Source of the DNA: Nitrospirales bacterium
Lineage (GTDB): Bacteria > Nitrospirota > Nitrospiria > Nitrospirales > UBA8639
DNA length: 64,000 nucleotides
Direction of reading: 5' to 3'
NCBI GenBank assembly: GCA_965207015.1
Contig: OZ242257.1
Location: forward strand, 461,253 to 525,252
Below, in pieces: positions 3,551 to 43,473 of this stretch. Both the position numbers and the translations under genes were made by a program. Each line of letters opens with the position of its first letter. Within the stretch, counting starts at the first letter, position 1. The notes below the pieces were generated by a model. The model searched no databases. It was not told where the DNA came from and saw only the letters and a program-made list of their open reading frames with translations.

Positions 3551-3565
3551 CGCCTCTCACCAATG

Positions 3566-4211: not shown

Positions 4212-4301
4212 GGACGGTCACGTCAGCCGGCCGCGCGCCAGGCTTCTTTACGTTGATGGTTCGTATCAGAATCGAACCAACAATCTAACGTCAGGTGCGT
4301 C

Positions 4302-25250: not shown

Positions 25251-25278
25251 CTGACCCTCGCCCCTAACCCTTCTCTTT

Positions 25279-25320
25279 CTGTCATCCTCGACATCTGTAA
25301 TCGAGGATCCAGCGTCTTTG
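25279..25320. repeat. REP-A copy
   Basis: GTCATCCTCGACATCTGTAATCGAGGATCCAGCGTCTTTG. Confidence 0.85.
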
Positions 25321-25351
25321 CCCTGTGTCTTTCTCTCTCGCCTCCGACCCT

Positions 25352-26731
25352 TCACGCTTTCTTCCGCACCAAAATCCTCAACGGCGTGCCCTCGAACCCG
25401 AACGTGGCCCGGAGTTGGTTTTCCAGGTACCGCAGGTAGGCGGGGGTCACCACCGCCGATTTGCCTGCAAACAGCGCGAACGTGGGCGGTTTGGTCGCGA
25501 CTTGGGTCATATAGAGCGATTTCGGCGGATTTCCTTTTTTCACGGTCAGGGGATTGTCGGTCAACGCCTTTTGGAGGAATTGATTGAGACGCCCGGTTGG
25601 TACCCGATACGAGAACGCGTCCATCACCCGGGTGACCGCGGCGAACACCTGATCGACGGTCTTGGGCGCCAGCGCCGATCCGAAGAGTACGGGCACGAAG
25701 GTGAAGAAAGGAAACTGTCGCTGCAACTCCAGAGTAAATTTCTTCTTGGCCTCGCGTTGATCCCGACGCAGGTCCCATTTATTGACGAGCATGACGCAAC
25801 CCCGTCCCTGCCGTTGGATGAGCCCCGCGATCTTGGTGTCCTGGTCCGTGACGCCCTCGACGCCATCAAGTAACAACACGCCGATATCCGACCGCCCCAA
25901 CGCCCTCATGGTCCTGGCCACGCTGTAGCCTTCGATGCCGGGCTCCACGCGGCCGCGACGCCGCAACCCCGCGGTATCCGTCAACAGAAACGGCCGGCCG
26001 TCGCGTTCCAGGTGCGTGTCGATGGGATCTCGCGTGGTGCCGGGCACGTCGCTGACGAGGGCGCGTTCCTCGCCCAGGATGGTGTTCACCAGCGTGGACT
26101 TGCCCACGTTGGGACGGCCGACCACGGCCACCCGGGTCGTGGCGGTTTCCGTCAGGTCCTCGTCATGCGCCGGCAGGAGATGCAGGAACGCCTCCAGCAG
26201 GTCATCCACCCCGTTGCCGTGCTCCGCCGAAACGGGGAACAGCATGTCCTTCCCGAGTTGATAAAAATCCGCCAACAGGGGTTCCGACTTCGGGGTATCG
26301 ATTTTATTGATGACCCAGAACGTGGGTTTGTCCACCCCGTGGAGCCCGTCCACGATCTCGCGGTCCACGGGCGTGAGCCCGGCGCGGCCGTCCATGATGA
26401 CGAGCAGAATATCCGCGGCGGCGAGCGCGGTCTGCGATTGCCGGCGGATGAGTCCGAGCATGCCGTCGTCGGCGGTGGGATCGAGCCCGCCAGTATCGAC
26501 GAGCTGGAAGCGGCGGCCCTGGTACGTGCACTCGGCGTAAATCCGGTCGCGCGTCACCCCCGGCCGGTCATCCACGATGGCGTTCCTGGTCCCCAGAATC
26601 CGGTTGAACAGGGTCGATTTCCCCACATTCGGCCGCCCGATCACCGCCACCAGCGGCACCCCCGACGGCCTGAGGCCCGGCAGAAACGCCTGCCGACTCG
26701 ATCGCGCTGTTGATTTCCGTTTCATGGCCAA
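25352..26731 (-). CDS. der: ribosome-associated GTPase Der (EngA)
   Basis: Two G domains (GRPNVGKST twice) plus a KH-like C-terminus. Confidence 0.95.
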   Translation of the reverse strand: MAMKRKSTARSSRQAFLPGLRPSGVPLVAVIGRPNVGKSTLFNRILGTRNAIVDDRPGVTRDRIYAECTYQGRRFQLVDTGGLDPTADDGMLGLIRRQSQTALAAADILLVIMDGRAGLTPVDREIVDGLHGVDKPTFWVINKIDTPKSEPLLADFYQLGKDMLFPVSAEHGNGVDDLLEAFLHLLPAHDEDLTETATTRVAVVGRPNVGKSTLVNTILGEERALVSDVPGTTRDPIDTHLERDGRPFLLTDTAGLRRRGRVEPGIEGYSVARTMRALGRSDIGVLLLDGVEGVTDQDTKIAGLIQRQGRGCVMLVNKWDLRRDQREAKKKFTLELQRQFPFFTFVPVLFGSALAPKTVDQVFAAVTRVMDAFSYRVPTGRLNQFLQKALTDNPLTVKKGNPPKSLYMTQVATKPPTFALFAGKSAVVTPAYLRYLENQLRATFGFEGTPLRILVRKKA

Positions 26732-26759
26732 GGCGGTTTTCTCTTTCTTTTGTCTTTAT

Positions 26760-26801
26760 CTGTCATCCTCGACATTCCTAATCGAGGATCCAGTGTCTTT
26801 G
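26760..26801. repeat. REP-A copy
   Basis: GTCATCCTCGACATTCCTAATCGAGGATCCAGTGTCTTTG. Confidence 0.85.
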
Positions 26802-26820
26802 TCTTTTCCTTTTGTATTCG

Positions 26821-26973
26821 TAGCCCCGCCATGTCATGGCGCATTCCTCCAAGTAGCATAGGACATTGCCGCTATAACGTGAAAAAGAATGTTCTCCGGC
26901 AGGCAGAGGAAAAGAAGAACCGAAAATCCAGTCTACGAGCGGGTAAGGGGAAAAGACAAGTCGTTACATGTGG
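26821..26973 (+). repeat. 153-bp direct repeat, copy 1 (flanks higBA)
   Basis: Aligns by eye with 27624-27776 at high identity over its whole length. It begins with the hairpin CGCCATGTCATGGCG. Confidence 0.85.
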
Positions 26974-27011: not shown

Positions 27012-27302
27012 CTATCCCAACATCGCAGCCGGTTGGACACCGACGGTCAGCCGGTGCTTCTCTCCGGCCAGCTTCCGAAAATCACACTCGACTTGGATGC
27101 CGTGCCAGAATTGCTCTGACTGGCCGAAGAAGGCGCCGAAGCGAATCGACATGGCAGGCGTGATCGACCGGCGGCCATGCACGATTTCATTGATCGCACG
27201 CGGGGCCACACCGATGGCGCGCGCCATGGCGTTCTGCGAAATCCCCATGGGCTTGAGGTATTCCTCAAGCAAAATCTCGCCGGGTGTGATGGGCGTGTCC
27301 AT
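27012..27302 (-). CDS. higA: HigA family antitoxin (XRE HTH)
   Basis: [29 protein letters not shown] signature. Confidence 0.85.
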
Positions 27303-27334: not shown

Positions 27335-27613
27335 TCAATGATAATCCGTGATGGCCACCTGTTCTGGCCCGGAATCCGTCCACCTGAAGACGATGCGCCA
27401 TTGGTCGTTGATGCGAATGGAATGAAAGCCCGAAAGCCTCCCGCTCAGAGCTTCAAGCCGGTTGCCGGGTGGCACGGCCAGGTCGCCAAGAGTACCGGCT
27501 TGATTCATCTGAATCAGTTTTCGTAACGCAACTCGTGATAGCACGGCAAACCGCCGGTTGCGTTCCGACCTGAACAGTTCTTCCGTATCCCTATCCGCAA
27601 AGGATTGGATCAT
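27335..27613 (-). CDS. higB: HigB / plasmid-maintenance killer toxin (RelE/ParE superfamily)
   Basis: [14 protein letters not shown]...[11 protein letters not shown]...[14 protein letters not shown]...ITDYH. The toxin gene lies upstream of the antitoxin, as in higBA. Confidence 0.85.
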
Positions 27614-27623
27614 GGCTAGCGCC

Positions 27624-27776
27624 TAGCCGCGCCATCTCATGGCGCTCTCCTCCAAGCAGCATTAGACGCTTTCGCTACAACGTGAAAAAGAATGTACTCC
27701 GGCAGGCAGAGGAAATAAAAAACCGAAAATCCAGTCTACGGGCGGGTAGAGGGGAAAGACAAGTCGTTACATGGGG
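27624..27776 (+). repeat. 153-bp direct repeat, copy 2 (left edge of island)
   Basis: See copy 1. Its first 23 nt (TAGCCGCGCCATCTCATGGCGCT) recur inverted at 38139-38161. Confidence 0.85.
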
Positions 27777-27962
27777 AGGGGCTTTATGGCGACGGTCTCT
27801 TGTCTGATAACGAATGAATGCTCGTTAAATGGGCGTTGCAAGTTTGTCGTCTCGCCATTGATGGGGGGGAGGGACACAGCCGACAGAATTCACTAAAAGC
27901 CAAAATTTTAGTTTTGAACTGTCTCCTTGACAAATAAGCTTGAGCTTTGAGGCAAAATTCCT

Positions 27963-28718
27963 TTACTCAAGCATCTCGTCATCTGTGAAAATCAGCAGCG
28001 TGAGAATCTCGTCGTTGCCTGGAATGTAACGCGACTCTTCATAAATTTCGTAGTTCTCTGCACCTCTGCGGTCAAACCAAATATCCGCACTAATCGGTAT
28101 ACGGTCGCTACATTCAGCCTCGTCCATAGCATAACGGGTTGGGTCGAGATCGTTGCGGGGAAACCACCGGTCTGGAATATAGTGCGATCGATAGAACCAT
28201 TTTCGGTTCCTTACGGTGTGACAGAGCAGGATAGCAGGCTCAGGTCCATACTCTATCAACCGAAGAGCGGTCGCAGTGATGCTAGTCTGGAATTCCGTCC
28301 GCAGGGTTTCCACGGCCTGAAAGGAGACTTTGCCAATTTCAAGCGCCATCGGTTCAAAGAGGTATTCAGGCATCAGGAGATCAGCAGCGTAACCATCAGC
28401 GATGCGTTCCGGGTCCGGAAAACTTTTCTTCGGGTTATTAATGTCATCTGATAAGCAGATCAAGGAGCGTCCTCGATCGTAATGCCAGTGACCCAACTCG
28501 TGTGCTGCCGAAAATCTCCGCCTAGCGGAAGTCGCTTGGCTATTGACCGTGATTACTGCGCGGTTGTTTGAACCAATAATACGGCCTTCGCAGCCGTTGA
28601 GCGGGCGATACTTAATGGTTGCTCCGACATGATAAGCGATTGCTTCAATGTCAATGTCCTTGGCAGCTGTGACACTAAGCTCTTTGAGGAGTTTTTCCGC
28701 TGGTGAAAGTTGATTCAC
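27963..28718 (-). CDS. ImmA/IrrE family (DUF955) zinc metallopeptidase
   Basis: HEXXH in RRFSAAHELGHWHYD and downstream ERIADGYAADLLMPEY. A C-terminal domain of about 110 aa of unknown role follows. Confidence 0.85.
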   Translation of the reverse strand: MNQLSPAEKLLKELSVTAAKDIDIEAIAYHVGATIKYRPLNGCEGRIIGSNNRAVITVNSQATSARRRFSAAHELGHWHYDRGRSLICLSDDINNPKKSFPDPERIADGYAADLLMPEYLFEPMALEIGKVSFQAVETLRTEFQTSITATALRLIEYGPEPAILLCHTVRNRKWFYRSHYIPDRWFPRNDLDPTRYAMDEAECSDRIPISADIWFDRRGAENYEIYEESRYIPGNDEILTLLIFTDDEMLE

Positions 28719-29152
28719 TTTACGTTGCCCTCGTCATCAATCATGCCAAGGTCAATGAGATCTTCAATAAAGCTGTCCATATCTGCTTCGGAGTCTTTCT
28801 CTTGACGCGCGGCAAGGGTTAACTTTTGTTTTAGTGTGTCGTTGTTCTGCGCGAAGTGCTGGATTAGCTGGTGTTTGCGACTCAACGGCCAGTACAATAC
28901 CTTATTCCCATGACCGGTTTGGTGCATCTCAGCTTCATAACCAGCACGCGCTGTTTCCATTTTCTGGCGGCCAAACTTTGCAATGGCATCAGCAATTAGC
29001 CCTCTCGTCCGCTTGGCAATCGCATCGGTGTCTTCGCCAGCTTCTTGCAGTTCGGCCATTAGTTCTTTATCACTCATGGCGTCTACATCGTCGGCCAATG
29101 CGTTGCAAAGTCGCTCCAACTTTTCAATTGCCTCATTCTGATTCTTATTCAT
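28715..29152 (-). CDS. acidic, predicted all-helical hypothetical protein (candidate partner/anti-sigma)
   Basis: 145-aa ORF. It overlaps the upstream gene by 8 nt and the downstream gene by 4 nt. No HTH or known motif is recognised. Confidence 0.6.
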   Translation of the reverse strand: MNKNQNEAIEKLERLCNALADDVDAMSDKELMAELQEAGEDTDAIAKRTRGLIADAIAKFGRQKMETARAGYEAEMHQTGHGNKVLYWPLSRKHQLIQHFAQNNDTLKQKLTLAARQEKDSEADMDSFIEDLIDLGMIDDEGNVK

Positions 29153-29726
29153 GGGTCAGGCCTTTCGGAAATTCGCGTAGAAGCTTGCGTTGCACGCGCT
29201 TTCGCGCTGCTGCGTACTCTTTCTCGCTCATGGACTCCATTTCACGGATTTCGTGCGGAGTCCAATCTTCCATAATGCCGATCACAATCGCCTGGGCCTT
29301 AGGGTCTTCGCTGAACATCGCCTCGATTCCGGCAAGTGCCTTGCCATAGTCGAGATGTCCTACGACAACCTCTTCCAGCGACATTGCCGGGTCAGGTGCG
29401 TTGACAATGGGATCGTCTCCATCACCCTCGCTAGAATTGCTGGGTGTTTCCCGCTTCCACTTCTCACGTGCATGGGAAGCAATGCTCTTCATCACGTTGC
29501 ACAAGAAAGTCGCTAGCTTCACGTCACGGGGGCAGTTACGGCCACCGTTCTCTTCAAGGGAACGCATCACAGCTTCCTGCAGGAGGTCGTTTGGTTCCAT
29601 GCCGGTGCCTGGTGCTAAGAAAGATGCCTCTTTCTGGAGGCGTGTCAGATCGGTCGGTTGCAAAGCCTCAAGCGCCGACCGCATCTCGGCAGGAGAGAGC
29701 ACTTCACGCTGTGGAATGGCTTCCAC
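29145..29726 (-). CDS. ECF sigma-70-like protein (regions 2 and 4 recognisable)
   Basis: DLLQEAVMRSLE...TFLCNVMKSIASHAREK resembles sigma region 2. TPHEIREMESMSEKEYAAARKRVQRKLLREF resembles the region 4 HTH. Confidence 0.5.
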   Translation of the reverse strand: MEAIPQREVLSPAEMRSALEALQPTDLTRLQKEASFLAPGTGMEPNDLLQEAVMRSLEENGGRNCPRDVKLATFLCNVMKSIASHAREKWKRETPSNSSEGDGDDPIVNAPDPAMSLEEVVVGHLDYGKALAGIEAMFSEDPKAQAIVIGIMEDWTPHEIREMESMSEKEYAAARKRVQRKLLREFPKGLTHE

Positions 29727-30036
29727 CGATTCAAAATCCTCCTTTCAACTCTTTAGGCCGAATTCAACGGGCCTTCCGGACAATTTTCTGAAATTTTTCT
29801 GGATTCTTGTGTCCGAGACGGCGGCTTTCGGCGGCCTAAGGTAATAGAGGCACAAGTCTCGGCCATTATTGAGTCCCAAATTGGGGAAGCGGCAGCGTAC
29901 CACCTGATAGGGATGAAGCGTAACACACATAAACGGCCATCTGGAAGTCCAAGAGTCGAGACATGCCTCTTTCTTTATCTTTTGAAAGCATATCGTTAAC
30001 CGGAAACCCTTTGGGGCCATTTTTAAGGAGGAAGCA

Positions 30037-30783
30037 ATGCCAGAAGTAACTGAAAGAAATGAGGTCGAAGATTTGGAGGAATGCGCGCGTGAGGATCGCA
30101 CACCGCGAGTCGGACATTGGTTTCGGGTGCGGATCAATGACAATAGATTCGTCGTCACCGATCCCGTTATTACGGGGCGACAGCTTCTCGACGAAGCTGG
30201 GAATCGGCCGGTCGAAGATTTTTTAATCTTTCTGAAACTGCGCAATGGGCTGCTGGAGGAGATCAGGCTTGACGAAACCGTTGATCTACGAAAGCTAGGC
30301 GTAGAGAGGTTCCTGGTGTTCAAGAGCGACCGGAGCTTCCGTTTCGAGTTGGATGGTCGGCGATTCGAATGGGGGGCGACCCTTATTACTGGGCGAACGC
30401 TGAAGAACCTTGCGGATGTGGACTTGGAAAGGTATGGGGTCTGGCGTGAAGTCCGTGGTGGCGAGGACCTCCCTATTGGTGACGATGAGTTTGTCGATCT
30501 CAGCGAGGAAGGGTTAGAGCGATTCTTCACGGCATCCCACCCTACCGCCACATTCGAGATCATCGTGAACGCACGTCCGCATACGGTAACAGGTCGGAAG
30601 GTGACCTTCGAACAGGTGGTAGAGTTGGCGTTTCCCAACTATCAACCAAATCCAAACATCGTGTTTTCGATGACCTATCGCCACGCCGCTTCTAAACCTC
30701 ATGCTGGCGAGCTTGGTGCTGGGGGTGTCGTCGAAGTGGACAATGGAACCGTTTTCAATGTCTCAAGAACTGATAAGTCGTAG
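30037..30783 (+). CDS. multiubiquitin-type protein with three tandem beta-grasp repeats
   Basis: AAGGAGG SD 7 nt upstream. Three internal repeats of about 70 aa (about nt 30118-30336, 30337-30540 and 30550-30780) share the F.[VFI].[IL][ND]...F/H.[VW]...ITGR..L pattern. Confidence 0.75.
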   Translation: MPEVTERNEVEDLEECAREDRTPRVGHWFRVRINDNRFVVTDPVITGRQLLDEAGNRPVEDFLIFLKLRNGLLEEIRLDETVDLRKLGVERFLVFKSDRSFRFELDGRRFEWGATLITGRTLKNLADVDLERYGVWREVRGGEDLPIGDDEFVDLSEEGLERFFTASHPTATFEIIVNARPHTVTGRKVTFEQVVELAFPNYQPNPNIVFSMTYRHAASKPHAGELGAGGVVEVDNGTVFNVSRTDKS

Positions 30784-31936
30784 TCCCGATTTGAAGCGTC
30801 TTCGTGATGAAGGATACTTCGTGCAGATACGAGGAGGTCTCCTCATCATGCGCGGAGTGCCCTACGTCAATGCGCTACGGCAGGTGCAGGAGGGAGTGCT
30901 GATCTCCAGCCTCACGCTCGCCGGCGACATCACCTCGCGACCGGACACGCATGTCGTCCACTTCGACGGCGACTACCCTTGTGGAGCAGATGGTACGCCT
31001 ATCCAGCAGATTATGAATCAAAGTGGAGACTTCGACCTTGGTAATGGCGTAACAGCAAAACACATGTTCTCAAGCAAGCCTAGTGAGGGATACCCCGACT
31101 ATTACCAAAAGATGACCACCTATGCCAATATCCTTTCAGGGCCTGCAACGACTTTGAAGCCCGGGGTCACCGCACGGATATTCCGCAATCCTGAAGACGA
31201 GGAAGATAGCATCTTCAGGTACGCAGAGACCGCATCCGATCGAGTGGGTATCGGCAGGCTAACTGAGCGGTTGGCAGAAGAAAAAATGGCTATCGTTGGC
31301 CTTGGCGGTACTGGGTCTTACGTGCTTGACCTCGTGGCCAAGACGCCGGTCCGAGAGATTCGACTTTTTGACGGCGATGAATTCTTGCAGCATAACGCCT
31401 TCCGTTCGCCGGGCGCTCCGTCCATTGAAGAACTGCGCGATGCACCGATGAAAGTCAATTACCTAAAGAATATTTATTCAAGAATGCACAGCAAAATCAT
31501 CGCCCATCCCGCTCCTATTGACGCAAGTAACGTCAACCTGCTGGACGGTATCACTTTCTCCTTCATATGCATGGACGGAAATGAAACCAAACGACTCGTC
31601 GTCGAAAAGCTTGAGGCTCTTAACGTGCCCTTCGTCGATACTGGTATGGGTCTCAACCTGAGTGACGACTCGTTGGGCGGTATTTTGAGGGTCACCGCGA
31701 GCACGCCAGCGAAGCGCGACCACATTCAGCGCCGCATATCTTTCGCTGTCGACGGGCAGGATGACATCTACGCGTCAAACATTCAGGTCGCCGATCTGAA
31801 CGCGCTGAATGCGGCAATGGCCGTCATCAAGTGGAAGAAAATTCGGGGTTTCTACCGAGATGATGATGGTGAGCATCATAGCACCTACACGATCGACGGC
31901 AACATGCTGCTGAATTGTGATTGCCGACAGCAATGA
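30758..31936 (+). CDS. E2-like N-terminal domain fused to a ThiF/MoeB/E1-type adenylyltransferase
   Basis: GLGGTGS nucleotide loop (31298-31318) and ThiF-like core. The N-terminal domain of about 190 aa has HVVHFDGDYPCG (Cys codon 30980-30982). The start is ambiguous (30743 or 30758), and both overlap the upstream gene. Confidence 0.8.
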   Translation: MSQELISRSPDLKRLRDEGYFVQIRGGLLIMRGVPYVNALRQVQEGVLISSLTLAGDITSRPDTHVVHFDGDYPCGADGTPIQQIMNQSGDFDLGNGVTAKHMFSSKPSEGYPDYYQKMTTYANILSGPATTLKPGVTARIFRNPEDEEDSIFRYAETASDRVGIGRLTERLAEEKMAIVGLGGTGSYVLDLVAKTPVREIRLFDGDEFLQHNAFRSPGAPSIEELRDAPMKVNYLKNIYSRMHSKIIAHPAPIDASNVNLLDGITFSFICMDGNETKRLVVEKLEALNVPFVDTGMGLNLSDDSLGGILRVTASTPAKRDHIQRRISFAVDGQDDIYASNIQVADLNALNAAMAVIKWKKIRGFYRDDDGEHHSTYTIDGNMLLNCDCRQQ

Positions 31937-32373
31937 TGCGATATTCTTATCTCAAACATCAGTTCGTACGGCACATTCCGCGTGACCTCGATCCAGGGGT
32001 GCTCTACATTTCAGTGGAATACGGTACAGCCGCACATAGTTGCTGTTGCGGGTGCGGTGAAGAAATCGTAACACCCTTTACACCAACCGACTGGGAAATG
32101 ACGTTCAATGGCGAGACGATTTCGTTATGGCCGTCGGTTGGCAACTGGAATCTAGCTTGTCGCTCCCACTACGTGATACAGCGCGGACAGGTGATCAAGG
32201 CCACGCCATGGAGCGATAGGCAAATCGTAGCGGGGCGTAGAAGGGACAAAGCGGCAAAGGCTCGCTACTTCGGCACAGGGGAGGTGCCTGCGGAAGCTGG
32301 ACGTGTGTTAACTCGCCCGGGAACTAGAGGCTTATGGTCTATGATCTTGCGCTGGATCTCCAAATCCAATTAA
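31933..32373 (+). CDS. Cys-rich DUF6527-like protein
   Basis: ATGA overlap with the E1 stop. AAHSCCCGCGEE (32041-32055) plus LACRSHY, a probable Zn site. The pattern matches my recollection of DUF6527 proteins next to ThiF/multiubiquitin genes. Confidence 0.6.
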   Translation: MMRYSYLKHQFVRHIPRDLDPGVLYISVEYGTAAHSCCCGCGEEIVTPFTPTDWEMTFNGETISLWPSVGNWNLACRSHYVIQRGQVIKATPWSDRQIVAGRRRDKAAKARYFGTGEVPAEAGRVLTRPGTRGLWSMILRWISKSN

Positions 32374-32393
32374 GGCACTATTTCCATGGTCAA

Positions 32394-34142
32394 TTAATCC
32401 CTTTTCTTTTCTCCTCTCGCTGGCTCTTCACTGTCCAGCACCAACGCCTCATGCAACATCGACTCAATCAATCGACCCCGCGCCTCGTCACCTGTGACAA
32501 GACTCGCCTCCAGCCGGTTACATAGGGTCATGAGTTCATCGACTTTGGCGACGATGCGGTGCTGTTCGGCGAGTGGGGGGAGATGAATAGAGAGTGGATA
32601 AATATCCTTATTGTTTATCTGAGGAACGGAAGTCCCAGAATTTAGCTTCCACAAATCCAGGTTGCTGAACCACAACTCCAAAAACGGAAGGAGATCGTTC
32701 ACAAATGGCTTCATAGCCATGATATTACTGTCGCAAACAATATTTACATGCAACCTGCGTTTTCGATTCGTTGCAATAGCCCCGCCCCTTTTTGGAAAAA
32801 CAATGCTTCCACTTTCGATCACGGCATCTTTCAGATCGTGACCAACAAATCTTGAGGATGTAACTATACCTTTATCGTTCTCAGTCAAGCTCAAATCCGA
32901 AACTTTCAAATATGGAAGGTCTCCAACAGCCTGCTCTTCACCGTGCTTAAGAGCTATACCGCTTCTCAGGTAGGCTATCTGGGAGATTGAGGTTTTGCTC
33001 CAATTTTGTGGCAACTGACGTGCAAATTTTTCATTCAAACCCCTGACAGTTGATTTTGCGCGGGGTATTTCCCCCGTCTTTACTAGCCGATCTTTCTCCG
33101 CCGCGATTCGCTTCAACAGCTCCGATGCTGGTTCGTCGTTCGGGTCTTGTGGGACGAGCTTGCCGCGTACGGCGAGGTTGAGGATGGTCTGGCGCAATGC
33201 TTTGATTTGGTCTGGGCGGGTGGTGAGCGGGGTGAGGTTGTTGAGAGCGAAGCGTGCGTGGTTCTGAAATGTCGCCGGGTCCGGGTCGGGTTCGTTGAGA
33301 CGGGCGAGGCTCGCTGTCGCCATCCGGTCGCGTGTCGCCTCTCGTTTCGCTCGCGTTTCCTCTAGTTGTTCGCAGAGGGCCATGAATTCGTCGACTTTGG
33401 CGACGATGCGGTGTTGTTCGGCGAGCGGAGGGAGGGGGATCAATGACTCATATAACTGATGGGCTTTAACATTTTGCACCGTCATCTTAGCTGTCTCGTC
33501 TTTCCACTTCTCGATGCGAGTATTGACGCCAAAGAGCAGCCATACGGAAAGCAAATCATTTGAGGCAGGAGTGATTCGAGCTATTCGTTGATTCAGGAGT
33601 GCTGTAGGTCCCTCCCATATGGCGCACTTGATTGAACCACTCAACCCGACAAGGATATCGCCACGATTTACCACGAAGGCTAGATCATACGGTCCCCTGA
33701 GAAAAACCGTTGGTGTGTTCGTTCCGATATCGCCTATCTTGATAAGTGGATACCCCGTGTTCGGGTCATTTGAGAAATTTCCTGAGGAAAAAGCAAAGCC
33801 TTGCACGATGATTGCGCTTGATCCGAGACGTATCCACTCCCAGTTGTGTGGAGTGTCGAAGGGGATTTCATCGAGTGCGATTTCAGGAAGAAGTTTTTCC
33901 TTTTTGATTTCCCCCGCCGCCATTTTCCGCTTTTTTTCTGCCGCAATCCGTTTCAACAACTCCGAGGCCGGTTCGTCGTTTGAGTCTTGTGAGACGAGCT
34001 TGCCGCGGACGGCGAGGTCGAGAATGAAACGGCGCAGGCGAGGGATGGCGTTGGGCGTGTCGGCGATGCGGTCGAAGTGTGTGAGGAGGTGTTCGACGGG
34101 AGCTGGATTCCCGCTTTCGCGGAAATGACAGTTGGGCTTCAC
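32394..34142 (-). CDS. hsdS: type I restriction-modification specificity subunit
   Basis: Two target-recognition halves separated by duplicated conserved helices (LPPLAEQHRIVAKVDEFMALCEQLE and LPPLAEQHRIVAKVDELMTLCNRLE). GTGA overlap with hsdM. Confidence 0.9.
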   Translation of the reverse strand: MKPNCHFRESGNPAPVEHLLTHFDRIADTPNAIPRLRRFILDLAVRGKLVSQDSNDEPASELLKRIAAEKKRKMAAGEIKKEKLLPEIALDEIPFDTPHNWEWIRLGSSAIIVQGFAFSSGNFSNDPNTGYPLIKIGDIGTNTPTVFLRGPYDLAFVVNRGDILVGLSGSIKCAIWEGPTALLNQRIARITPASNDLLSVWLLFGVNTRIEKWKDETAKMTVQNVKAHQLYESLIPLPPLAEQHRIVAKVDEFMALCEQLEETRAKREATRDRMATASLARLNEPDPDPATFQNHARFALNNLTPLTTRPDQIKALRQTILNLAVRGKLVPQDPNDEPASELLKRIAAEKDRLVKTGEIPRAKSTVRGLNEKFARQLPQNWSKTSISQIAYLRSGIALKHGEEQAVGDLPYLKVSDLSLTENDKGIVTSSRFVGHDLKDAVIESGSIVFPKRGGAIATNRKRRLHVNIVCDSNIMAMKPFVNDLLPFLELWFSNLDLWKLNSGTSVPQINNKDIYPLSIHLPPLAEQHRIVAKVDELMTLCNRLEASLVTGDEARGRLIESMLHEALVLDSEEPARGEKKRD

Positions 34143-35596
34143 CGGATCAACGCCTCCGCCAGGATCTTCTTCAATTGGTCGCGCAGGTCGGCGGTTTCGG
34201 CTTCGGTCTTGCTCAGCTTTGCCAGCAATTCCTGCGGGTCACCGTGGTTGTCTTCGGCGGTATGTGGGTTTTTGATGTCGAGGTTGTAGCCGCGTGCCTT
34301 GATCTCTTCAGCAGTCACCTTCCAGGCGCGGTCAGTTTCCTTGCGGCCTTTGCGGTCTGCGCCGCCCCACCAGTCGATGCAGGGTTGCAGGTGTTCCAGT
34401 TTGATGGGTTTGGTCATGGAATAGGCTTTCTGGCCTTCGGGGACGCGGTGTTCGTAGAACCAGATATCTTTGGTCGCTTCGCCTTTCTCGAAGAACAGCA
34501 GGTTGGTGCCGATGGAGGCGTAGGGCCTGAACACGGAGTTGGGCAGGCGGACGATGGTGTGCAAGTTGCACTCCTCCATGAGATGTTCCTTGAGCCGCGT
34601 CTTGACGCCTTCGCCGAACAGCGAGCCGTCTGGCAGGACGACCGCGGCGCGCCCTCCCGGCTTCAACAGCCGGACGATCAGGGCAAGGAACAGGTCTGCG
34701 GTCTCCCTGGTACGGAAGTGCTGGGGGAAGTTGGTCTCGATGCCGTCTTCTTCCTTGCCGCCAAAGGGCGGGTTGGTCAGCACAACGTCCACCCGGTCCT
34801 TCTTCTCCCAACCGATGTAGGGCTTTGCCAAGGTGTTGTCGTGGCGTACGAAGCCTGGGTCCTCGATGCCGTGCAACAGCATATTGGTGACGCATAGCAT
34901 GTGCGGCAGTTGTTTTTTCTCAACGGCGCGCAGTGCGGCTTGCATTTTCCGTTCGTCTGAGGGCCGCTTGACGTAGCGGTCGCGCATGTGGCGTATCGAA
35001 CAGGTCAGGAAGCCGCCCGTGCCGCAGGCGGGATCGAACAGAGTTTCACCGGGCTTGGGATCGATGCGGTCGGCCATGAAGGCGGTGACGGCGCGCGGCG
35101 TGTAGTATTCGCCCGCGTTTCCTGCGGATTGCAGGTCGTTGAGGATTTGTTCATAGATGTCGCCGAAGTGCTGGCGCTCGGTGAGGTTGTTGAAGTCGAT
35201 GCCGTTGATCTTGTTGACCACCTGGCGCATCAATTGGCCGGACTTCATGTAGTTATTGGCGTCCTCGAACACGTCGCGCACCACGCGGCCTCGGTCTTCC
35301 GCATGGCTGGTCGTCCGGAGATCCTTCAGGGCCGGGAACAGGTCGTTGTTGATGAAGGTGAGCAATGCTTCACCGGTGATGCCCTCGGGGTCGGCTGCCC
35401 AGGCGCGCCACCGGAAGCGCGCCGGGATCGGGGAGGCATAGTCCGACTTCATCAGTTCTAGTTCCTGATCCTGATCGTCGATGATTTTGAGGAAGAACAT
35501 CCAGCACAACTGGCTGATGCGCTGGGCGTCGCCGTCCACGCCGGAGTCCTGGCGCATGATATCCTGAACGGATTTGACGAGAGTGCGGACGGACAC
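34139..35596 (-). CDS. hsdM: type I R-M N6-adenine DNA methyltransferase subunit
   Basis: LTNPPFGGK (motif IV) and DPACGTGGFL (motif I). Confidence 0.95.
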   Translation of the reverse strand: MSVRTLVKSVQDIMRQDSGVDGDAQRISQLCWMFFLKIIDDQDQELELMKSDYASPIPARFRWRAWAADPEGITGEALLTFINNDLFPALKDLRTTSHAEDRGRVVRDVFEDANNYMKSGQLMRQVVNKINGIDFNNLTERQHFGDIYEQILNDLQSAGNAGEYYTPRAVTAFMADRIDPKPGETLFDPACGTGGFLTCSIRHMRDRYVKRPSDERKMQAALRAVEKKQLPHMLCVTNMLLHGIEDPGFVRHDNTLAKPYIGWEKKDRVDVVLTNPPFGGKEEDGIETNFPQHFRTRETADLFLALIVRLLKPGGRAAVVLPDGSLFGEGVKTRLKEHLMEECNLHTIVRLPNSVFRPYASIGTNLLFFEKGEATKDIWFYEHRVPEGQKAYSMTKPIKLEHLQPCIDWWGGADRKGRKETDRAWKVTAEEIKARGYNLDIKNPHTAEDNHGDPQELLAKLSKTEAETADLRDQLKKILAEALIR

Positions 35597-35599
35597 GGG

Positions 35600-38032
35600 C
35601 TACGCGGTCTCCTGATAGAGCGCGGCTTGCAGGTCGCGGACTGCGGCAACGAATTTGTCCTTGCCGCCGAAGGCGTTGATCAACTGCACCGGGGTGCCGA
35701 GTTCGGTCAACGGCGGGATGCGCAGTACGCTGACGTCATCCAAGTTGAACATTCCCTCGTCGGCGTATTTGACAAGCAGGGCGTCGAGCACGGCGCGGGC
35801 CTGTTCTCCGTATTTGTTGAACACATCGCGTTTCTTGACGTTCGCGGCGCGCTCGCGGCGGGTGAGCGGCTTGGCGTCAAAGGCGACATGGCAGATGAGA
35901 TCGAAGGGGTCGAGATCCCTGCCAAGCTCTTGGGCGATGGCGTCGAGAGGCAGATCCGCGTCCTCCAATTCTTCGACAATCGCCTGCTTGCGCTCTGCCG
36001 CTCCCCAGCGCCGGAGGAAATCGTCGAGGCTGGCGAAGCGCTTTTTCAGAGCCTTCTTGGTGAAGTCGCGCAAGGACTCGGTGACGAGCTTGCCGTACTC
36101 GTCCAGAAATTCCACCCGCTCACCTATGACTGTGGCCTCGATACCATCCACGTACACTTTGCGCGGACTATCACGAGGGTACGGCGGGGGAGGGTCATCG
36201 ATAATGGTTTCATCCTCCCCAGGTTCCGCCGGAATGGGATCGTCGTCATCGTCTTGAGGTGGCACGTCGTCAGGCGGCACGATGGAATCGCCTCCACCCG
36301 GTTCGTAAGTCTGTACCGGTTCACCGTCGAAATCCGGGTCGGCGAAGTGATTGGTCGCGCCGCGAAAATCCATCAGGGTGAAGTAAAGTTTGTGTGTGTC
36401 GTCGTGTACGCGGGTGCCACGTCCGAGTATCTGCTTGAACTCGGTCATGGATCCGACTTCACGGTCGAGCACGATCAGCCTGCACGTTTGCACATCGACA
36501 CCCGTGGACAGCAGCCGCGAGGTAGTGACCAGCACGGGGTATCTGGATTCCGGGTCGATGAAGTTGCCCAACTCCGCTTGGCCTTCGGGGTCGTCGCCGG
36601 TGATGCGCATCACGTAGCGATGGTTTTGGTCCACCAAGTCGGCGTTCTGGTTGACGAGCGTCTGCCGCATGCGCGTGGCGTGTTCTTGGTCGACGCAGAA
36701 GATGATTGTCTTGTTGAAGCGACCGCCGCTTTCCTTCAGGAATTCCGTCACCTTTTCGGCGACGACTTTGGTCCGGCCGTCCAGCACTAGGTTACGATCG
36801 AAGTCCTTGGTGTTGTAGATGCGGTCTTCGACTTCCTTGCCGCTCCGGTCGCGTTGGCCTTTCTCCGGCCGGTAGCCTGCTACGTCGCGGTCGATATGGA
36901 CCTTGATGACTTTGTAGGGGGCGAGGAAGCCGTCCCTGATTCCCTGTTTCAGGGAGTAGGAGTAGACCGGCTCGCCGAAGTAATGGATGTTGGACACGTA
37001 GCGAGTTTCCTTGGGCGTGGCGGTGAGACCGATCTGCGTGGCTGTGGTGAAATATTCCAGGATTTCCCGCCAAGCTGAGTCGTCGGCGGCACTGCCGCGA
37101 TGACACTCGTCGATCACGATGAGGTCGAAGAAGGTGCGTGAAAATTCGCGGAATATTTTTTGACGTTCTTCTGGTCCAGTGATCGCTTGGTACAGGCTGA
37201 GATAGACCTCGTACGCTTTATCGATACGCCCGACGGTGGCAGGCGAGTCCTCTGAGGAACCGTCGTCGCGTTCGATGGTTCCCGCTCTGGTCGAAAGTTT
37301 GGTCATAGCCGGACCAAAGGGCCGGAAGTCGTTGACCATGGTTTGGTCCACCAGCACGTTGCGGTCAGCCAGGAACAGGATTCGTTTTTTGCGCCCTGCC
37401 TTCCACAGTCGCCAGATGATCTGAAAGGCTGTGTAGGTTTTGCCGGTTCCCGTCGCCATGACAAGCAGAATGCGGTTGCGTCCTTTGGCGATGGCTTCGA
37501 TGGCGGCGTTGATGGCATTGACCTGATAGTAGCGCGGGGTTTTGCCGCTGCCATCGTCAAAATAATCCTGAAGGACGATTGCCTCTTCTTCGGAGGTTAG
37601 GCCTTTCCACGCGCAATAGCGTGCCCACAGGTCTTTTGGCGAGGGGAAGGAATCGTTATCGAGCGTGGTTTCTTTTTCAACGCCGGTGCCGCTCCGGTCA
37701 TGGAAGACGAACCCATCACCGTTGGAGGAGAAGACGAAGGGCACCTGCAACGTTTCGGCATAGTCGAAGGCCTGTTGCATGCCGTCGCCGATGGCATGAG
37801 TATTGTCTTTGGCTTCGATCACCGCAATGGGGACGTTGGGCTTGTAACAGAGGATGTAGTCGGCCCGCTTGGCCTTGCCCCTGCTGACCAACTTCCCGCG
37901 CACGATGATGCGGCCCTTGGTGAAACTGACCTCCTCGCGGATTTGCGTCATCTCGTCCCAGCCTGCCTTGCGAAGGGCGGGCGTGATGAACTTGGTGCAG
38001 ATGTCGCGCTCGCTCAGGTCTTTCTTATTCAT
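35600..38032 (-). CDS. hsdR: type I restriction endonuclease subunit (EcoAI/EcoEI-like, probably family IB)
   Basis: Nuclease N-terminus (ADYIL...IEAKD), MATGTGKTYTAFQ, VIDECHRGS (DEAH), and a C-terminal EcoEI-R-like tail, 810 aa. Confidence 0.95.
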   Translation of the reverse strand: MNKKDLSERDICTKFITPALRKAGWDEMTQIREEVSFTKGRIIVRGKLVSRGKAKRADYILCYKPNVPIAVIEAKDNTHAIGDGMQQAFDYAETLQVPFVFSSNGDGFVFHDRSGTGVEKETTLDNDSFPSPKDLWARYCAWKGLTSEEEAIVLQDYFDDGSGKTPRYYQVNAINAAIEAIAKGRNRILLVMATGTGKTYTAFQIIWRLWKAGRKKRILFLADRNVLVDQTMVNDFRPFGPAMTKLSTRAGTIERDDGSSEDSPATVGRIDKAYEVYLSLYQAITGPEERQKIFREFSRTFFDLIVIDECHRGSAADDSAWREILEYFTTATQIGLTATPKETRYVSNIHYFGEPVYSYSLKQGIRDGFLAPYKVIKVHIDRDVAGYRPEKGQRDRSGKEVEDRIYNTKDFDRNLVLDGRTKVVAEKVTEFLKESGGRFNKTIIFCVDQEHATRMRQTLVNQNADLVDQNHRYVMRITGDDPEGQAELGNFIDPESRYPVLVTTSRLLSTGVDVQTCRLIVLDREVGSMTEFKQILGRGTRVHDDTHKLYFTLMDFRGATNHFADPDFDGEPVQTYEPGGGDSIVPPDDVPPQDDDDDPIPAEPGEDETIIDDPPPPYPRDSPRKVYVDGIEATVIGERVEFLDEYGKLVTESLRDFTKKALKKRFASLDDFLRRWGAAERKQAIVEELEDADLPLDAIAQELGRDLDPFDLICHVAFDAKPLTRRERAANVKKRDVFNKYGEQARAVLDALLVKYADEGMFNLDDVSVLRIPPLTELGTPVQLINAFGGKDKFVAAVRDLQAALYQETA

Positions 38033-38138
38033 AAGCGCATGATTTTATATGTTGCGTTGAAGTTGCACAATGTGCGGTATGGAGCCGCCTGACTTTACAT
38101 CCTTACTCCGGCTTTTTCCTGGTGGAGGAGGAGTGAAG

Positions 38139-38161
38139 CGCCATGAGATGGCGCGGCTACG
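38139..38161 (-). repeat. inverted copy of the 23-nt head of the 153-bp repeat (right edge of island)
   Basis: The reverse complement, TAGCCGCGCCATCTCATGGCGCT, is identical to 27624-27646. Confidence 0.8.
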
Positions 38162-38177
38162 ATAGGAAAGGAAAAGG

Positions 38178-38215
38178 CAAAGACGCTGGATCCCTGATCA
38201 GATCGGGGATGACAG
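38178..38215. repeat. REP-A copy (inverted)
   Basis: CAAAGACGCTGGATCCCTGATCAGATCGGGGATGACAG. Confidence 0.85.
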
Positions 38216-38244
38216 AAGGGGAGAGGGTGGTTTTATTTAGTTCG

Positions 38245-38526
38245 TTACTCGATACTCTTCAATTTTCCCGTTACGAATTTGTGGAGGGTGCTGGAGATGA
38301 GGGTTTGGTAGGGCATCCCTTCCTTTGCCGCTTTTTTTTGCAGACTGTTCAAATCGCGTGACGAGATCCGAATGTTGATTCGCTTGTCCTTTTGAAGGAA
38401 CTCGTGGGCCGCCTCTTCCAGTTGACGCTTCGCTTCTTTGAAATTGTTGATACTGGTCAGTTCCCCCCGTTCAAAGTCCTGGAGGATCTTCATCTCTTCC
38501 CTGTCTAATTTGAGAGCGTTCTTCAT
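38245..38526 (-). CDS. ribbon-helix-helix (BrnA/CopG-like) antitoxin, apparently orphan
   Basis: AAGGAG SD 8 nt before the internal Met. RINIRISSRDLNSLQKKAAKEGMPYQTLIS matches the RHH 'PYQ[ST]LI' pattern. No intact toxin ORF lies upstream. Confidence 0.6.
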   Translation of the reverse strand: MKNALKLDREEMKILQDFERGELTSINNFKEAKRQLEEAAHEFLQKDKRINIRISSRDLNSLQKKAAKEGMPYQTLISSTLHKFVTGKLKSIE

Positions 38527-38644
38527 TTGAGGTACTCCTTTGTCGGTTCCATTCTGAATATGAAAGAGGATGGCTTGAATCTCATGTTGTGTGCCTTTTG
38601 TCAACGCCAATGTCGTCATAACTACGAGATTCCTCGCTACGCTC

Positions 38645-38752
38645 GGAATGACAAATGACGCTGGATCCCCGATCAGGTCGGGGATGACAGACAAGAAACA
38701 AAGGCAAAGACAAAGACACTGGATTCCCGATTAAGGATGTCGGGAATGACAG
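38645..38752. repeat. two REP-A copies (inverted)
   Basis: CTGGATCCCCGATCAGGTCGGGGATGACAG and CTGGATTCCCGATTAAGGATGTCGGGAATGACAG. Confidence 0.85.
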
Positions 38753-38773
38753 AGAGAGGCAAAGGAGGGGAAC

Positions 38774-39301
38774 TTATAAATGCAAATGTTTCATGGCAGC
38801 GGCGCAGAGGATGATGAAGATGCCCATCCAGAGGCCGGCTTTTTGGAAGGGGATGGGTTCGACGATTTGTTCTTCTTTTTCCTGTTCGTCTTCCTCGCCC
38901 GTGGGTTCGATGCGGAAGATGACGGTGTAGAGGAACAGGGTCAGGATGCCGAGTACCAGGGTGAGCTTGATGAAGAAGACCGTCAAATACTTGGCGTTGT
39001 TGGACAGGCCGAAGCCGGTCTGCATTTCCATGGCTTCGCTCACGTAATGCAGATTGATGCCGCCCGTGAAGAGGATCACCACCAGCAGCATGCCCACCAC
39101 CTTGCGATACTGCTTGTAGAAGGTGTCGCAGATGGGTTTGATGTATTCCTTGGGCACGGACGATTGCAGCCCGGGCGTCACCGCCATGACCAGGAAGGCC
39201 AGCCCGCCGATCCACACGACGGCCGAGAGCAGGTGCAGCCAGTGATTGACAATGGGAATGATTTTGTTGATATCGGACAGCGTGGCCAGCAGGGCATCCA
39301 T
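38774..39301 (-). CDS. integral membrane protein (CopD-like 4-TM)
   Basis: The internal Met lies in an ATGA overlap with the radical-SAM stop. WLHLLSAVVWIGGLAFLVM and further TM helices. Confidence 0.55.
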   Translation of the reverse strand: MDALLATLSDINKIIPIVNHWLHLLSAVVWIGGLAFLVMAVTPGLQSSVPKEYIKPICDTFYKQYRKVVGMLLVVILFTGGINLHYVSEAMEMQTGFGLSNNAKYLTVFFIKLTLVLGILTLFLYTVIFRIEPTGEEDEQEKEEQIVEPIPFQKAGLWMGIFIILCAAAMKHLHL

Positions 39302-40665
39302 CAGAATTTGAACACCGGTTTTTCGTTGCCGAAGCGTTTTTGCCGAAGCTCTTCCATCAACTCCACGGTGATGCGTGGGATGTTGTGTTCGCGGGCGTGC
39401 CGTTCGGTGCCTTTTTTCACCATGGCGCGCAGGAAGTAGGGGATCCGGCTCAACCGCGCCTGCGCGGCTTCGTCCCATTCCACCTCGACCTCCTCGGGCA
39501 CGTTGAACGCGACCTGGATTTTTTCCCCGCCCTTGGGCGTGTACAGGCACCACTGATCCTCATCCATCCAGTCCCCGTGATCCACGTAGGGCCGCGCCCG
39601 GCAGCCGCCGCAGATCTCGCTGTATTCGCAGTCGCCGCATTTGCCCTTCAGGTGGGGATACCGGAACGAGTCGAAGATGTCCGACTTCTCCCACAGGTCC
39701 ACGAAACTGGTGTCCCGGATGTTCCCGGCCGACAGGGGCATGTAGGGACACGGGGTCAGGTCCCCGTTGGGGGTGACCCGCGCGTAGTTCGTCCCGGCCA
39801 GGCAGCCCCCGCCCATGTATCCCTGGGCCTTGGTGATCGGAGAGTCGGGGTCCTTTTCATAGGCTAGGCGTTTGAAGTGCGGGGCGCACCGCGCGCGCAC
39901 CAGCATGTCCGAATACCGGTCCTGGCTTTCCACCAGGAAGGCCAGCACCTCCTCGTACTGTTCGGGGGTAATGTCGGTTAGTTCTTCGCCGCGGCCCGTG
40001 CAGACCATGAAGAAGACGTTCAGCACGCGCGCGCCCAGGCCGTGGGCCCAGTCGATCACGTCCGGCAGTTCCTTGTAGTTCATGGGTTGGGCGCTGAAGT
40101 GCACCTGGAATTGCAAGCCGTTCCGTTTGCAGGCTTCGATGCCCGCGACCGCCGCTTCCCAGGCCCCGGGAATGCCGCGAAACGCGTCGTGTTTGGCCGC
40201 GTCGAGGGAGTCGATGCTGATGCCCATGCCCATGACGCCGATCTCCACGAGTTCGCGGGCCAGGCGGTCGTTGATGAGCATGCCGTTGGTGCCGAAGACG
40301 ACCATGAACCCCTGGCTCACGGCGTGACGCGCGATGTCCAGGATGTCTGGCCTGACGAGGGGTTCGCCCCCGGTGATGACCAGCAGGCAGCCTTTATTGA
40401 CTTCGGCGATCTGATCGATGAGCCGGTAGCATTCCTCGGTCGAGAGCTCGTCCGAGCCGCCCCCGGCCTTGGTGGTGGCGTCCAGATAGCAGTGATCGCA
40501 TTTCAGATTGCAGCGTTTGGTCAGGTTCAGAGCGACGAGGTAGGGCTTGAAATCATCGACGGTTCGGCCGTCGCCGGGACCAACTCCGGGAGACGTAAAC
40601 CCGGTGACGCGGGAGTCGAGCCCTTCCCCTTGGGGGGCATTGATGACAGGGAGTGATTTGCCCAT
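39301..40665 (-). CDS. radical SAM/SPASM protein with a C-terminal PCP-reductase-like domain
   Basis: CNLKCDHCY (CX3CX2C) and a SPASM Cys cluster (GKCGDCEYSEICGGCRARPY). The C-terminal EVEWDEAAQARLSRIPYFLRAMVKK... matches the repeats in the next gene. Confidence 0.85.
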   Translation of the reverse strand: MGKSLPVINAPQGEGLDSRVTGFTSPGVGPGDGRTVDDFKPYLVALNLTKRCNLKCDHCYLDATTKAGGGSDELSTEECYRLIDQIAEVNKGCLLVITGGEPLVRPDILDIARHAVSQGFMVVFGTNGMLINDRLARELVEIGVMGMGISIDSLDAAKHDAFRGIPGAWEAAVAGIEACKRNGLQFQVHFSAQPMNYKELPDVIDWAHGLGARVLNVFFMVCTGRGEELTDITPEQYEEVLAFLVESQDRYSDMLVRARCAPHFKRLAYEKDPDSPITKAQGYMGGGCLAGTNYARVTPNGDLTPCPYMPLSAGNIRDTSFVDLWEKSDIFDSFRYPHLKGKCGDCEYSEICGGCRARPYVDHGDWMDEDQWCLYTPKGGEKIQVAFNVPEEVEVEWDEAAQARLSRIPYFLRAMVKKGTERHAREHNIPRITVELMEELRQKRFGNEKPVFKF

Positions 40666-43332: not shown

Positions 43333-43473
43333 GAAAGAATGTTTCTTTTGAGGGCATCAGTATGCTTCCTTTTCAGGAAAGTATGACTTATTTCATGAAG
43401 TCAGCATGGAGAATATTTCGGGTCCTGGTTCGGTCGTGTGAGGGCGTCGGGGTGCGCCGCTGCGTTATCAGGC

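Follow-up and report, generated by a model that had tools for sequence, protein, structure and literature searches.

Cis-mobilizable elements (CIMEs), as set out in the part of PMC5704250 drawn on here, retain attachment (att) sites and are without integration genes. A different type of locus is the core-flanked defence hotspot of Pseudomonas aeruginosa, without marks of mobile genetic elements (MGEs), for which transduction plus homologous recombination is proposed in the relevant sections of PMC10250203. A further class comprises repetitive extragenic palindromes (REPs), their hairpin-forming doublets (REPINs) and REP-associated tyrosine transposases (RAYTs), defined in the extracts used of PMC3733652 and PMC3337134 by a GTAG head beside a short palindrome, by inverted doublets and by a Y1 transposase. 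The stretch considered here is a 64,000-nt window (positions 461,253 to 525,252 of contig OZ242257.1, assembly GCA_965207015.1) from a Nitrospirales bacterium, in which a horizontally acquired anti-phage defence island occupies a variable hotspot between der and a gene for a CopD-like membrane protein. A preliminary description of the same DNA took exact inverted copies of a 23-nt hairpin motif for the borders of the island. Comparison with relatives instead places the borders at two direct copies of the final ~29 bp of the CopD-like gene, and with moderate confidence we regard the 3′ end of that gene as a hotspot of site-specific integration, used repeatedly and since decayed, in which the REPs are passengers. 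The new facts sit within known kinds: REP/REPIN, CIME-like element and core defence hotspot.

Coordinates are window positions, and the window sits within one 2.35-Mb contig of 57.3% GC. The present genome is G000, and other G-numbers denote congeners. L065 is a Nitrospiraceae metagenome-assembled genome (JBBIJI010000011.1), and L084, L086, L087 and L036 stand for the loci of G079, G086, G074 and G102, respectively. The REP/REPIN and integration-island classes were tested feature by feature for G000 plus relatives.

Two copies of a gene end border the island

The sequence that defines the borders, ATGSARRTGTTTCATGGCGGCGG, comes from the ~29 bp at the end of the CopD-like gene and is referred to below as the core. 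In G012, where the slot is empty, a ~90-nt element on the der side runs directly into the CopD-like stop codon (TTACAGATGGAGATGCTTCATGGCAGCGG...); in G000 what comes after the ~90-nt element is a decayed gene-end copy at 27767-27795 (TTACATGGGGAGGGGCTTTATGGCGACGG), and then the cargo. This scar matches the ancestral gene end at 22/29 positions and the functional copy, 38774-38802, at 17/29, both counted by hand on the printed sequences. A pseudo-copy of the gene end comes after the der-side element in G000 and in nine other species, and better-kept orthologous scars are present in G001, G013, G003, G010, G008, G015, G074 and G095. By this alignment the inserted DNA in G000 is about 27796-38773, bounded by direct gene-end copies, and takes in the right 23-nt copy, three copies of a second REP type (REP2) and the gene for a CopG-type antitoxin, features that are at or beyond the border as first drawn.

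The der-side segment, consisting of a REP doublet plus the ~90-nt element, aligns with its counterpart in most close relatives and in the empty-site genome. Since the left 23-nt copy is part of a segment that occurs in G012, that copy predates the island and lies outside it, and the right copy is ~615 bp inside the right end; delimitation of the island by the two motif copies, as first described, therefore fails on both sides. The ~90-nt element itself (27681-27766) is kept in G012, G015, G001, G018, G010, G008, G002 and G013. Terminator-like hairpins on the minus strand are at 27697-27711 and 26894-26908, and the element is probably the original 3′ untranslated region/terminator of the CopD-like/radical-SAM operon and/or the der promoter region. 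From a practical perspective, an island may have exact inverted repeats on its two sides that are no more than ordinary REPs, with the real scar visible only by comparing relatives.

The core is not confined to one pair of borders. In G005 three core copies of 28-30 bp, with 96.6-100% identity, bound islets of 4.75 and 3.96 kb. In L065, from a distant lineage in which the CopD-like protein is 64% identical, there are also three (2802-4513): the first two have 31 nt in common without a difference, and the working end of the gene is the third. Between them are an 834-bp cassette with a Phd/PIN toxin-antitoxin (TA) pair and an 855-bp Uma2 cassette, and no recombinase is present within 8 kb of these cassettes. 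In a scan of 185,579 species-representative genomes, matches to a 23-nt core pattern are confined to Nitrospira/Nitrospirales records. A direct repeat of a gene 3′ end, empty sites and tandem arrays with internal repeats occur together here, a combination that is the classic mark of site-specific integration and accretion.

A smaller duplication is nested beside the left border. The 153-bp direct repeat reported in the preliminary description (26821-26973 and 27624-27776) is real, with 86% identity between the copies, and a genome search finds its 130-nt tail at this locus only, on which ground its candidacy as a dispersed element was rejected. Copy 1 ends in a core stub, TTACATGTGG, of which G000 keeps 10 bp at 26964-26973, to the left of the higBA TA genes. 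The same higBA cassette is in the same place in G015 and G001, where the left junction keeps more of the core. After higBA in G000 come a second REP doublet, the ~90-nt element and the core, and because these three recur, each 153-bp repeat can be taken as one copy of the segment upstream of der. This arrangement would be in keeping with the Campbell-type insertion of a circle that bore both higBA and that segment.

With CIMEs of the ICESt1/ICESt3 type, named for integrative and conjugative elements, the locus shares direct repeats of a gene 3′ end and tandem arrays with internal att sites (the relevant portion of PMC5704250, citing Pavlovic 2004 and Bellanger 2011). It differs in that no integrase-bearing relative was found at the site, in that cassettes can be <1 kb, and in its target, a Nitrospirales gene for a CopD-like membrane protein; mobility is here a prediction from sequence. 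Serial small cassettes, often TA, with a repeated boundary and no adjacent integrase are also features of integron cassette arrays and of clusters of attC sites lacking integron-integrases (CALINs). However, the boundary in the present case is a 28-30-bp gene-end copy and not an attC hairpin with R″/L″/L′/R′ boxes. No IntI-like tyrosine recombinase was found with a hidden Markov model (HMM) or phmmer, there is no attI, and attC architecture was judged absent by eye. An integron was rejected, there being no IntI and the boundary repeat being a gene end.

A variable slot for defence genes

The der and radical-SAM genes are syntenic in every genome of the genus that has both on one contig. The comparison of this interval among relatives, proposed in the preliminary description, located the empty site: in 11 species, the ten farthest from G000 (der identity 71-77%) plus G012 (82%), the island is absent and the gap between the two genes is 620-900 bp, 527 bp of it being the CopD-like gene. 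In eight more distant metagenome contigs der follows ~45-410 bp after the CopD-like gene. In crown species the gap is 1.3-15.2 kb, and in G000 it is 12.6 kb. About 20 occupied genomes hold differing cargo in the same slot between der and the CopD-like gene: a DndB-like protein and Dam methylase in G018; SIR2 and HerA in G013; a cyclic-oligonucleotide-based antiphage signalling system (CBASS) with an ImmA-HTH regulator in G010; DarT/DarG, a HEPN protein and an AbiJ-like protein in G058 and G095; DruA (Druantia) and a subtilase in G005; a 762-aa reverse transcriptase in G069; a TIR-STAND protein in G007; MmeI-like and other methylases in G017 and G015; and an AAA_21 ATPase in G001. Elsewhere the slot also has SocA/Panacea, PIN, other TA modules and type I restriction-modification (R-M) genes, and insertion sequences (ISs) of the IS1595, IS110, IS481 and IS3 families are among its contents in relatives.

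The accessory content first described for G000, an ImmA operon, a ubiquitin-like (Ubl) conjugation cassette and hsdRMS, is borne out by Pfam and PADLOC gene calls. The AT-richer stretch is also evident in the sliding GC and third-codon-position GC (GC3) profiles, the preliminary description having suggested plots of sliding-window GC and codon usage: GC is 0.49-0.55 across 27.5-34.5 kb versus 0.60-0.64 in the flanks, and GC3 is 52-61% in the cargo genes and hsdS (52-59% in the CapP-like operon) versus 81-83% in der, the CopD-like gene and the radical-SAM gene. With a GC3 of 81% and 74%, respectively, hsdM and hsdR look native; the pair is common to G004, G010 and G008 at 88-90% DNA identity, near that of the flanking core genes. 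Together with the empty sites and the variable cargo, the GC and GC3 shift upholds the view of an acquired defence island.

The part of the cargo from 27796 to 32393, comprising the CapP-like operon and the Ubl cassette, is unique to G000 within the genus: it has no DNA match at the locus of 26 relatives, elsewhere in G000 or anywhere in the other 37 genomes of the genus. Its ImmA/IrrE peptidase matches PADLOC capP over the full length (1e-61), and the operon is divergent from the Ubl cassette. In the slot of G010 an ImmA-HTH fusion diverges from a CBASS operon that has a SMODS cyclase and a patatin, and in that of G008 the same ImmA-HTH regulator is followed by IS3 and then by a lone DUF6527 gene, 42% identical to that of G000. 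CapP-type regulators seem to stay while the effector operon gets swapped.

As to TA modules, stated earlier to sit on both sides of the island, both are real (higBA on the left and CopG of the ribbon-helix-helix, RHH, type on the right), but the copG gene is inside the island rather than outside it. A partner gene of 101-107 aa is directly upstream of CopG in G018, G017 and G058, of which G000 keeps just a 65-bp trace (38580-38644) between REP copies; judged by this trace, the antitoxin was apparently orphaned through deletion.

Like the core defence hotspots of P. aeruginosa (cDHS1/2, PMC10250203) and the defence islands of E. coli (PMC10121019), the locus is a core-flanked slot with varying anti-phage systems, variable size and low GC, in a class where MGE marks are often absent. 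Unlike them, an att-like scar is identifiable in G000, and the comparison is across species of an uncultured Nitrospirales genus and not across strains. What has been mapped is a compact hotspot, between der and the CopD-like gene, in uncultured small-genome Nitrospirales. With known systems and many unannotated genes in it, it is a practical place to mine for nitrifier defence genes.

A probable history of integration, remodelling and decay

The ancestral state would have been a CopD-like stop codon abutting its terminator region and der. Recombination inside the ~29-bp end of the CopD-like gene would then have let mobile DNA in, leaving a decayed gene end on the der side and the working end opposite. 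Repeated use of the site across lineages could then have generated the tandem islets, with the recombinase gene being later lost or always acting in trans. Presumably the interior was remodelled by swapping of modules between related genomes, with the old type I R-M genes kept and the G000-specific CapP/Ubl module added, and the locus would have gathered IS and REP insertions and suffered deletions, of which the orphan antitoxin and the IS relic may be the outcome. Both this order of events and the part of a site-specific (tyrosine-type) recombinase in making the duplication are our inference.

That no integrase, transposase or tRNA attachment site is inside had been noted at the outset, and it holds. 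Pfam finds no integrase or transposase gene among all sizeable ORFs (open reading frames) of G000 in the region, no tRNA is present between 16942 and 52550, and an IS-end relic of ~75 bp is at about 27860-27934. Its terminal 23 nt, TAGTTTTGAACTGTCTCCTTGAC, are identical to the IS end after an rve-type transposase ORF in G098 and G007, the ~50 nt before TAGTTTTGAACTGTCTCCTTGAC resemble a transposase C-terminus, and the G000 genome holds three copies of the IS end. In the G000 genome there are six PF00589 matches, all outside the window, of which four, starting at genome positions 196071, 217400, 1675966 and 1777790, are non-Xer-like tyrosine recombinases; no serine recombinase was found in it. 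Searches with a custom tyrosine-recombinase HMM and phmmer yielded no integrase in 26 genus, 10 metagenome and 29 genome-contig loci, and Pfam on 67 cargo ORFs of relatives yielded transposases and no integrase. Because the site has no integrase, a CIME-like decayed or non-autonomous element is to be thought of rather than an autonomous island. Of the possibilities first listed, an old island whose mobility genes are lost is the one that best fits the direct gene-end copies, the empty sites and the lack of an integrase.

Several points weigh against an integration hotspot. The site is without an integrase in all ~40 genomes and contigs examined, and the core is absent from the viral contigs searched. 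With border copies in G000 that match at 17/29 only, the inference rests on the relatives, and the synonymous differences that set the scar apart from the working copy are also seen when functional gene ends of different species are compared. Block ends in interspecies alignments are ~2-fold enriched near REPs, and a role for REPs in module exchange may remain. A ~60-nt element just inside the left border is also pertinent. It has two small hairpins (AACGA...TCGTT and GTTAAA...TTTAAC) and is beside the core in G003, G005 and G095, and partly in G074 and G013, despite differing cargo. It is single-copy in G000, but it has low-copy relatives at other loci of the genus (G095, G010, G013, G002 and G018); not being locus-specific in the genus, it is not usable as an element arm and may be a small dispersed element, and there is no integrase within up to 10 kb of its other copies. 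In G013 an inverted ~60-nt copy is at the far end of the SIR2-HerA cargo.

Two further features once considered were downgraded: a ~75-nt ‘arm’ as a conserved element end, related copies being present at other loci, and a ‘recoded 3′ end’ supplied by the element, outgroup gene ends having the same synonymous variants. A dif/Xer site, as used by integrative mobile elements exploiting Xer (IMEX), was rejected, the core being non-palindromic by inspection and the cumulative GC skew having no switch in the profiled 18-48 kb. An inverted-repeat transposon was likewise rejected, with outer bases CTAGCGCC on the left and CGATAGGA on the right constituting no duplication, and with no transposase gene inside.

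The inverted motif is a dispersed palindrome

The inverted pair itself is exact. TAGCCGCGCCATCTCATGGCGCT is at 27624-27646 on the forward strand and its exact reverse complement is at 38137-38159, 2 bp from the 38139-38161 first given for it; 0/100 shuffles produced a match, and the inverted match reaches 30 nt at 90%. A third copy, with three mismatches, is at 26821-26843 (+). As a special element of island borders, the motif does not survive a search of the genome: it has 15 copies at <=3 mismatches, and a structure-aware census finds ~28 GTAG- or TAG-headed sites of the form TTTGTAGCY-GCNNNAT-CTY-ATNNNGC spread over the whole contig, which makes it a dispersed REP. A GTAG head is present in 24/28 family members, including the 38137 copy; the 27624 copy reads CTAG because the 153-bp duplication begins at T.

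Support for the palindrome comes from its variation. Six stem variants pair (GCGCC/GGCGC, GCGGC/GCCGC, GCCGC/GCGGC, GCGCG/CGCGC, GCGTC/GACGC and GCGGG/CCCGC), with five variable stem positions altering in compensatory fashion. Among sites picked by head and loop alone, 20/24 have a perfect 5-bp stem and 3/24 have one mismatch in it. The hairpin, with a 7-bp stem and a 3-nt loop, has a folding energy of -8 kcal/mol with z = -4 (z = -4.0 for the 38137 copy). The genome has six inverted doublets, with 0 in a reversed-genome control. One REPIN-like doublet is 27624-27680 itself, relatives reading CAGCATAAGATGCTGCCGCTACAA at 27656-27680, the reverse complement of which, GTAGCGGCAGCATCTTATGCTG, fits the REP family consensus.

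A Y1_Tnp gene is absent from G000. However, G079, G086 and G074 have Y1_Tnp ORFs of 130-165 aa, both sides of which carry 4-13 GTAG-REP copies of this very family; by sequence these frames are RAYT-like and the arrays are predicted REPtrons. Because of the GTAG head, the doublets and the Y1 association in congeners, the 23-nt motif can be classed as a REP of a dispersed GTAG REP/REPIN family that is genus-wide. RAYT would have been lost from G000, leaving REP copies as relics that are probably immobile there; at the locus these copies occupy intergenic junctions.

About half of the GTAG-REP copies are fused to the more abundant REP2, a 68-nt copy of which has 41 BLAST matches in the genome, to give composites resembling the bacterial interspersed mosaic elements (BIMEs) of E. 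coli, which are mosaic clusters with a second REP type. One such REP2/GTAG-REP composite, 26754-26843, has an orientation opposite to that of the 38137-38244 composite. The family is like described GTAG REP/REPIN-RAYT systems (PMC3733652, PMC3337134, PMC3479197 and PMC8266576, in the parts that treat these features) in its GTAG head, compensatory stem and conserved loop, and also in its tens of dispersed copies, its inverted doublets and the arrays flanking congener Y1 genes. It is unlike them in that G000 is without RAYT and in its low copy number (~28). Nitrospirota is not among the phyla shown in the available part of PMC3733652, whose text has no match to ‘Nitrospira’, and the present family documents GTAG REP/RAYT for this phylum.

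Other functions proposed for the motif were rejected. Two (+) copies face away from the upstream genes and the tail is C/T-mixed, which does not suit a terminator; for a leader peptide (reverse strand GGAGG-N6-ATG AGA TGG CGC GGC TAG), the hairpin varies genome-wide by compensatory changes. A permissive Rfam scan of 22-42 kb found no family for the motif or the 153-bp repeat, its lone match being a chance one to a long non-coding RNA.

In G102 (L036, 1410-2620) the loop of a third palindromic repeat, CCCCTCCTTTGTAAGGAGGGG, has taken up an IS110-family element. The family of this third repeat is also represented in the window at 6239, 9154, 23276, 47668 and 47748; here, REP-like hairpins appear to serve as targets of IS110 elements.

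Alternative explanations

One alternative is that the system is still active, with the 29-bp core as the att site for a family of small cassettes (0.8-5 kb, with TA and defence genes) that lack an integrase and are inserted one after another by a recombinase from another part of the genome or from a helper element, as with CIMEs, phage satellites and integron cassettes. The 834-855-bp cassettes between near-identical cores are too small to encode their own integrase, G005 has its three near-perfect cores, two far-apart Nitrospiraceae lineages, with 64% identity between their CopD-like proteins, both make use of this site, and the four non-Xer-like tyrosine recombinases elsewhere in G000 could be candidates. 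However, no recombinase is linked to the core, and a free or attP form was not found in species-representative genomes or viral contigs. Most left cores are decayed, which speaks for old and not ongoing events, and well-preserved tandem cores are in two genomes only. Continuing activity is on this evidence unlikely. The more specific idea that the CopD-like gene end is the landing site of an undescribed, integron- or satellite-like Nitrospiraceae cassette system without its own integrase, with the ~60-nt element perhaps aiding recognition, is similarly doubtful. A series of cassettes that share one gene-end core and have no integrase is the part worth following up, as it raises the testable question of what recombinase acts there.

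About equally improbable is that homologous recombination has done everything, with cargo swapped via the conserved flanks after DNA uptake and the duplicated gene end a by-product of an old illegitimate event. Here the lack of an integrase anywhere at the locus is in its favor, as is the P. aeruginosa precedent in the sections cited above. Interior modules differ among species that share hsdMR at core-like identity, and the higBA duplication could have come about by Campbell-type recombination across the 153-bp segment. Yet the three near-perfect cores of G005 and the independent tandem cores of L065 are left unexplained, as is the placement of every insertion within the last codons of one gene.

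The mechanism favored in the preliminary description, with the hairpins, alone or as GTAG-REP/REP2 composites, as sites of acquisition, inversion or shuffling via RAYT, another hairpin enzyme or homology anchoring, has several observations to its credit. A (+) copy near der and (-) copies toward the CopD-like side recur in G018, G001, G008, G010 and G003. Homology blocks end exactly at the motif in G010 (at 38160) and G017 (at 38135), the 153-bp duplication begins at its first base, and the IS110 element of G102 is within the loop of another palindromic repeat. Among 209 merged interior block ends, 33 are within 40 bp of a GTAG-REP versus 18.8 expected at random intergenic positions (1.8-fold), and 81 are near either REP type versus 34.9 expected (2.3-fold); but REP indels by themselves break alignments, and with related genomes the block ends are non-independent, so that the enrichment overstates the link. 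Block ends being about 2-fold more frequent near REPs than at random intergenic positions, REP clusters mark module junctions, as anchors or as mere fillers. Mobilization of the island by the hairpin repeat is nevertheless very unlikely: the left copy is ancestral, being outside the inserted DNA and already in G012, the right copy has its orthologs upstream of hsdR in two genomes with other cargo, G010 and G008, the G000-specific cargo of 27796-32393 touches neither copy, G000 has no RAYT, and there is no target-site duplication outside the motif pair. We take the REPs for passengers accumulating at module junctions, where they may have a minor role as short homology anchors.

Features of the locus and its surroundings

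The features between der and the radical-SAM gene are collected in Table 1.

Table 1. Coordinates of genes, repeats and border sequences at the der/CopD-like locus of the window
Feature	Position	Strand	Basis or remark
der (EngA GTPase), left core flank	25352-26731	(-)	Pfam MMR_HSR1 x2 and KH_dom-like
REP2 copy, TGTCATCCnCGAC...ATCGnGGATCCAG	26754-26813	(+)	repeat families D4, D5, D8
153-bp segment, copy 1: degenerate GTAG-REP doublet and ~90-nt locus-specific element	26821-26973	(+)	
higA and higB, between two 153-bp copies	27012-27302 (higA), 27335-27613 (higB)	(-)	Pfam HTH_3, HigB-like_toxin
Left 23-nt motif, GTAG-type REP hairpin reading CTAG for GTAG	27624-27646	(+)	
Degenerate inverted partner REP	27656-27680	(-)	alignment with relatives
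Conserved locus-specific element	27681-27766	(-)	kept in relatives, single-locus in genome
attL-like scar, decayed CopD-like gene end (left border of inserted DNA)	27767-27795	(+)	alignment with relatives
~60-nt two-hairpin element just inside left border	27796-27855	(+)	conserved beside core
Right-end relic of rve-transposase IS	27860-27934	(+)	match to IS end in G098, G007
Three-gene operon ending in ImmA/IrrE (CapP-like) metallopeptidase	27963-29726	(-)	Pfam Peptidase_M78
Ubl conjugation cassette: Multi_ubiq, DUF6791-ThiF E1-like, DUF6527	30037-32373	(+)	Pfam
Type I R-M: hsdS, hsdM, hsdR	32394-38032	(-)	Pfam and PADLOC
Right 23-nt motif, GTAG REP, 105 bp upstream of hsdR start	38137-38159	(-)	within island
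REP2 copy forming BIME-like composite with GTAG REP	38161-38244	(-)	repeats I1, I8, I10, D20
Orphan CopG/RHH antitoxin gene	38245-38526	(-)	Pfam CopG_antitoxin
Two further REP2 copies, few bases short of gene end	38654-38766	(-)	D20, I2-I4
attR-like core: working last codons and stop of CopD-like gene (right border)	38774-38802	(+)	
CopD-like membrane protein gene, right core flank	38774-39301	(-)	Pfam, synteny
Radical-SAM/SPASM gene, right core flank	39301-40665	(-)	Pfam, synteny

On the other side of der, at 24748-25337, is a brnT/brnA TA pair of low GC (47%), followed by a REP2 copy at 25273-25337, and this pair may be a second small insertion beside der. Farther to the right, three tandem 234-nt repeats (43099-44479), which are 74-80% identical and spaced by 522 and 625 bp, overlap three small minus-strand ORFs.

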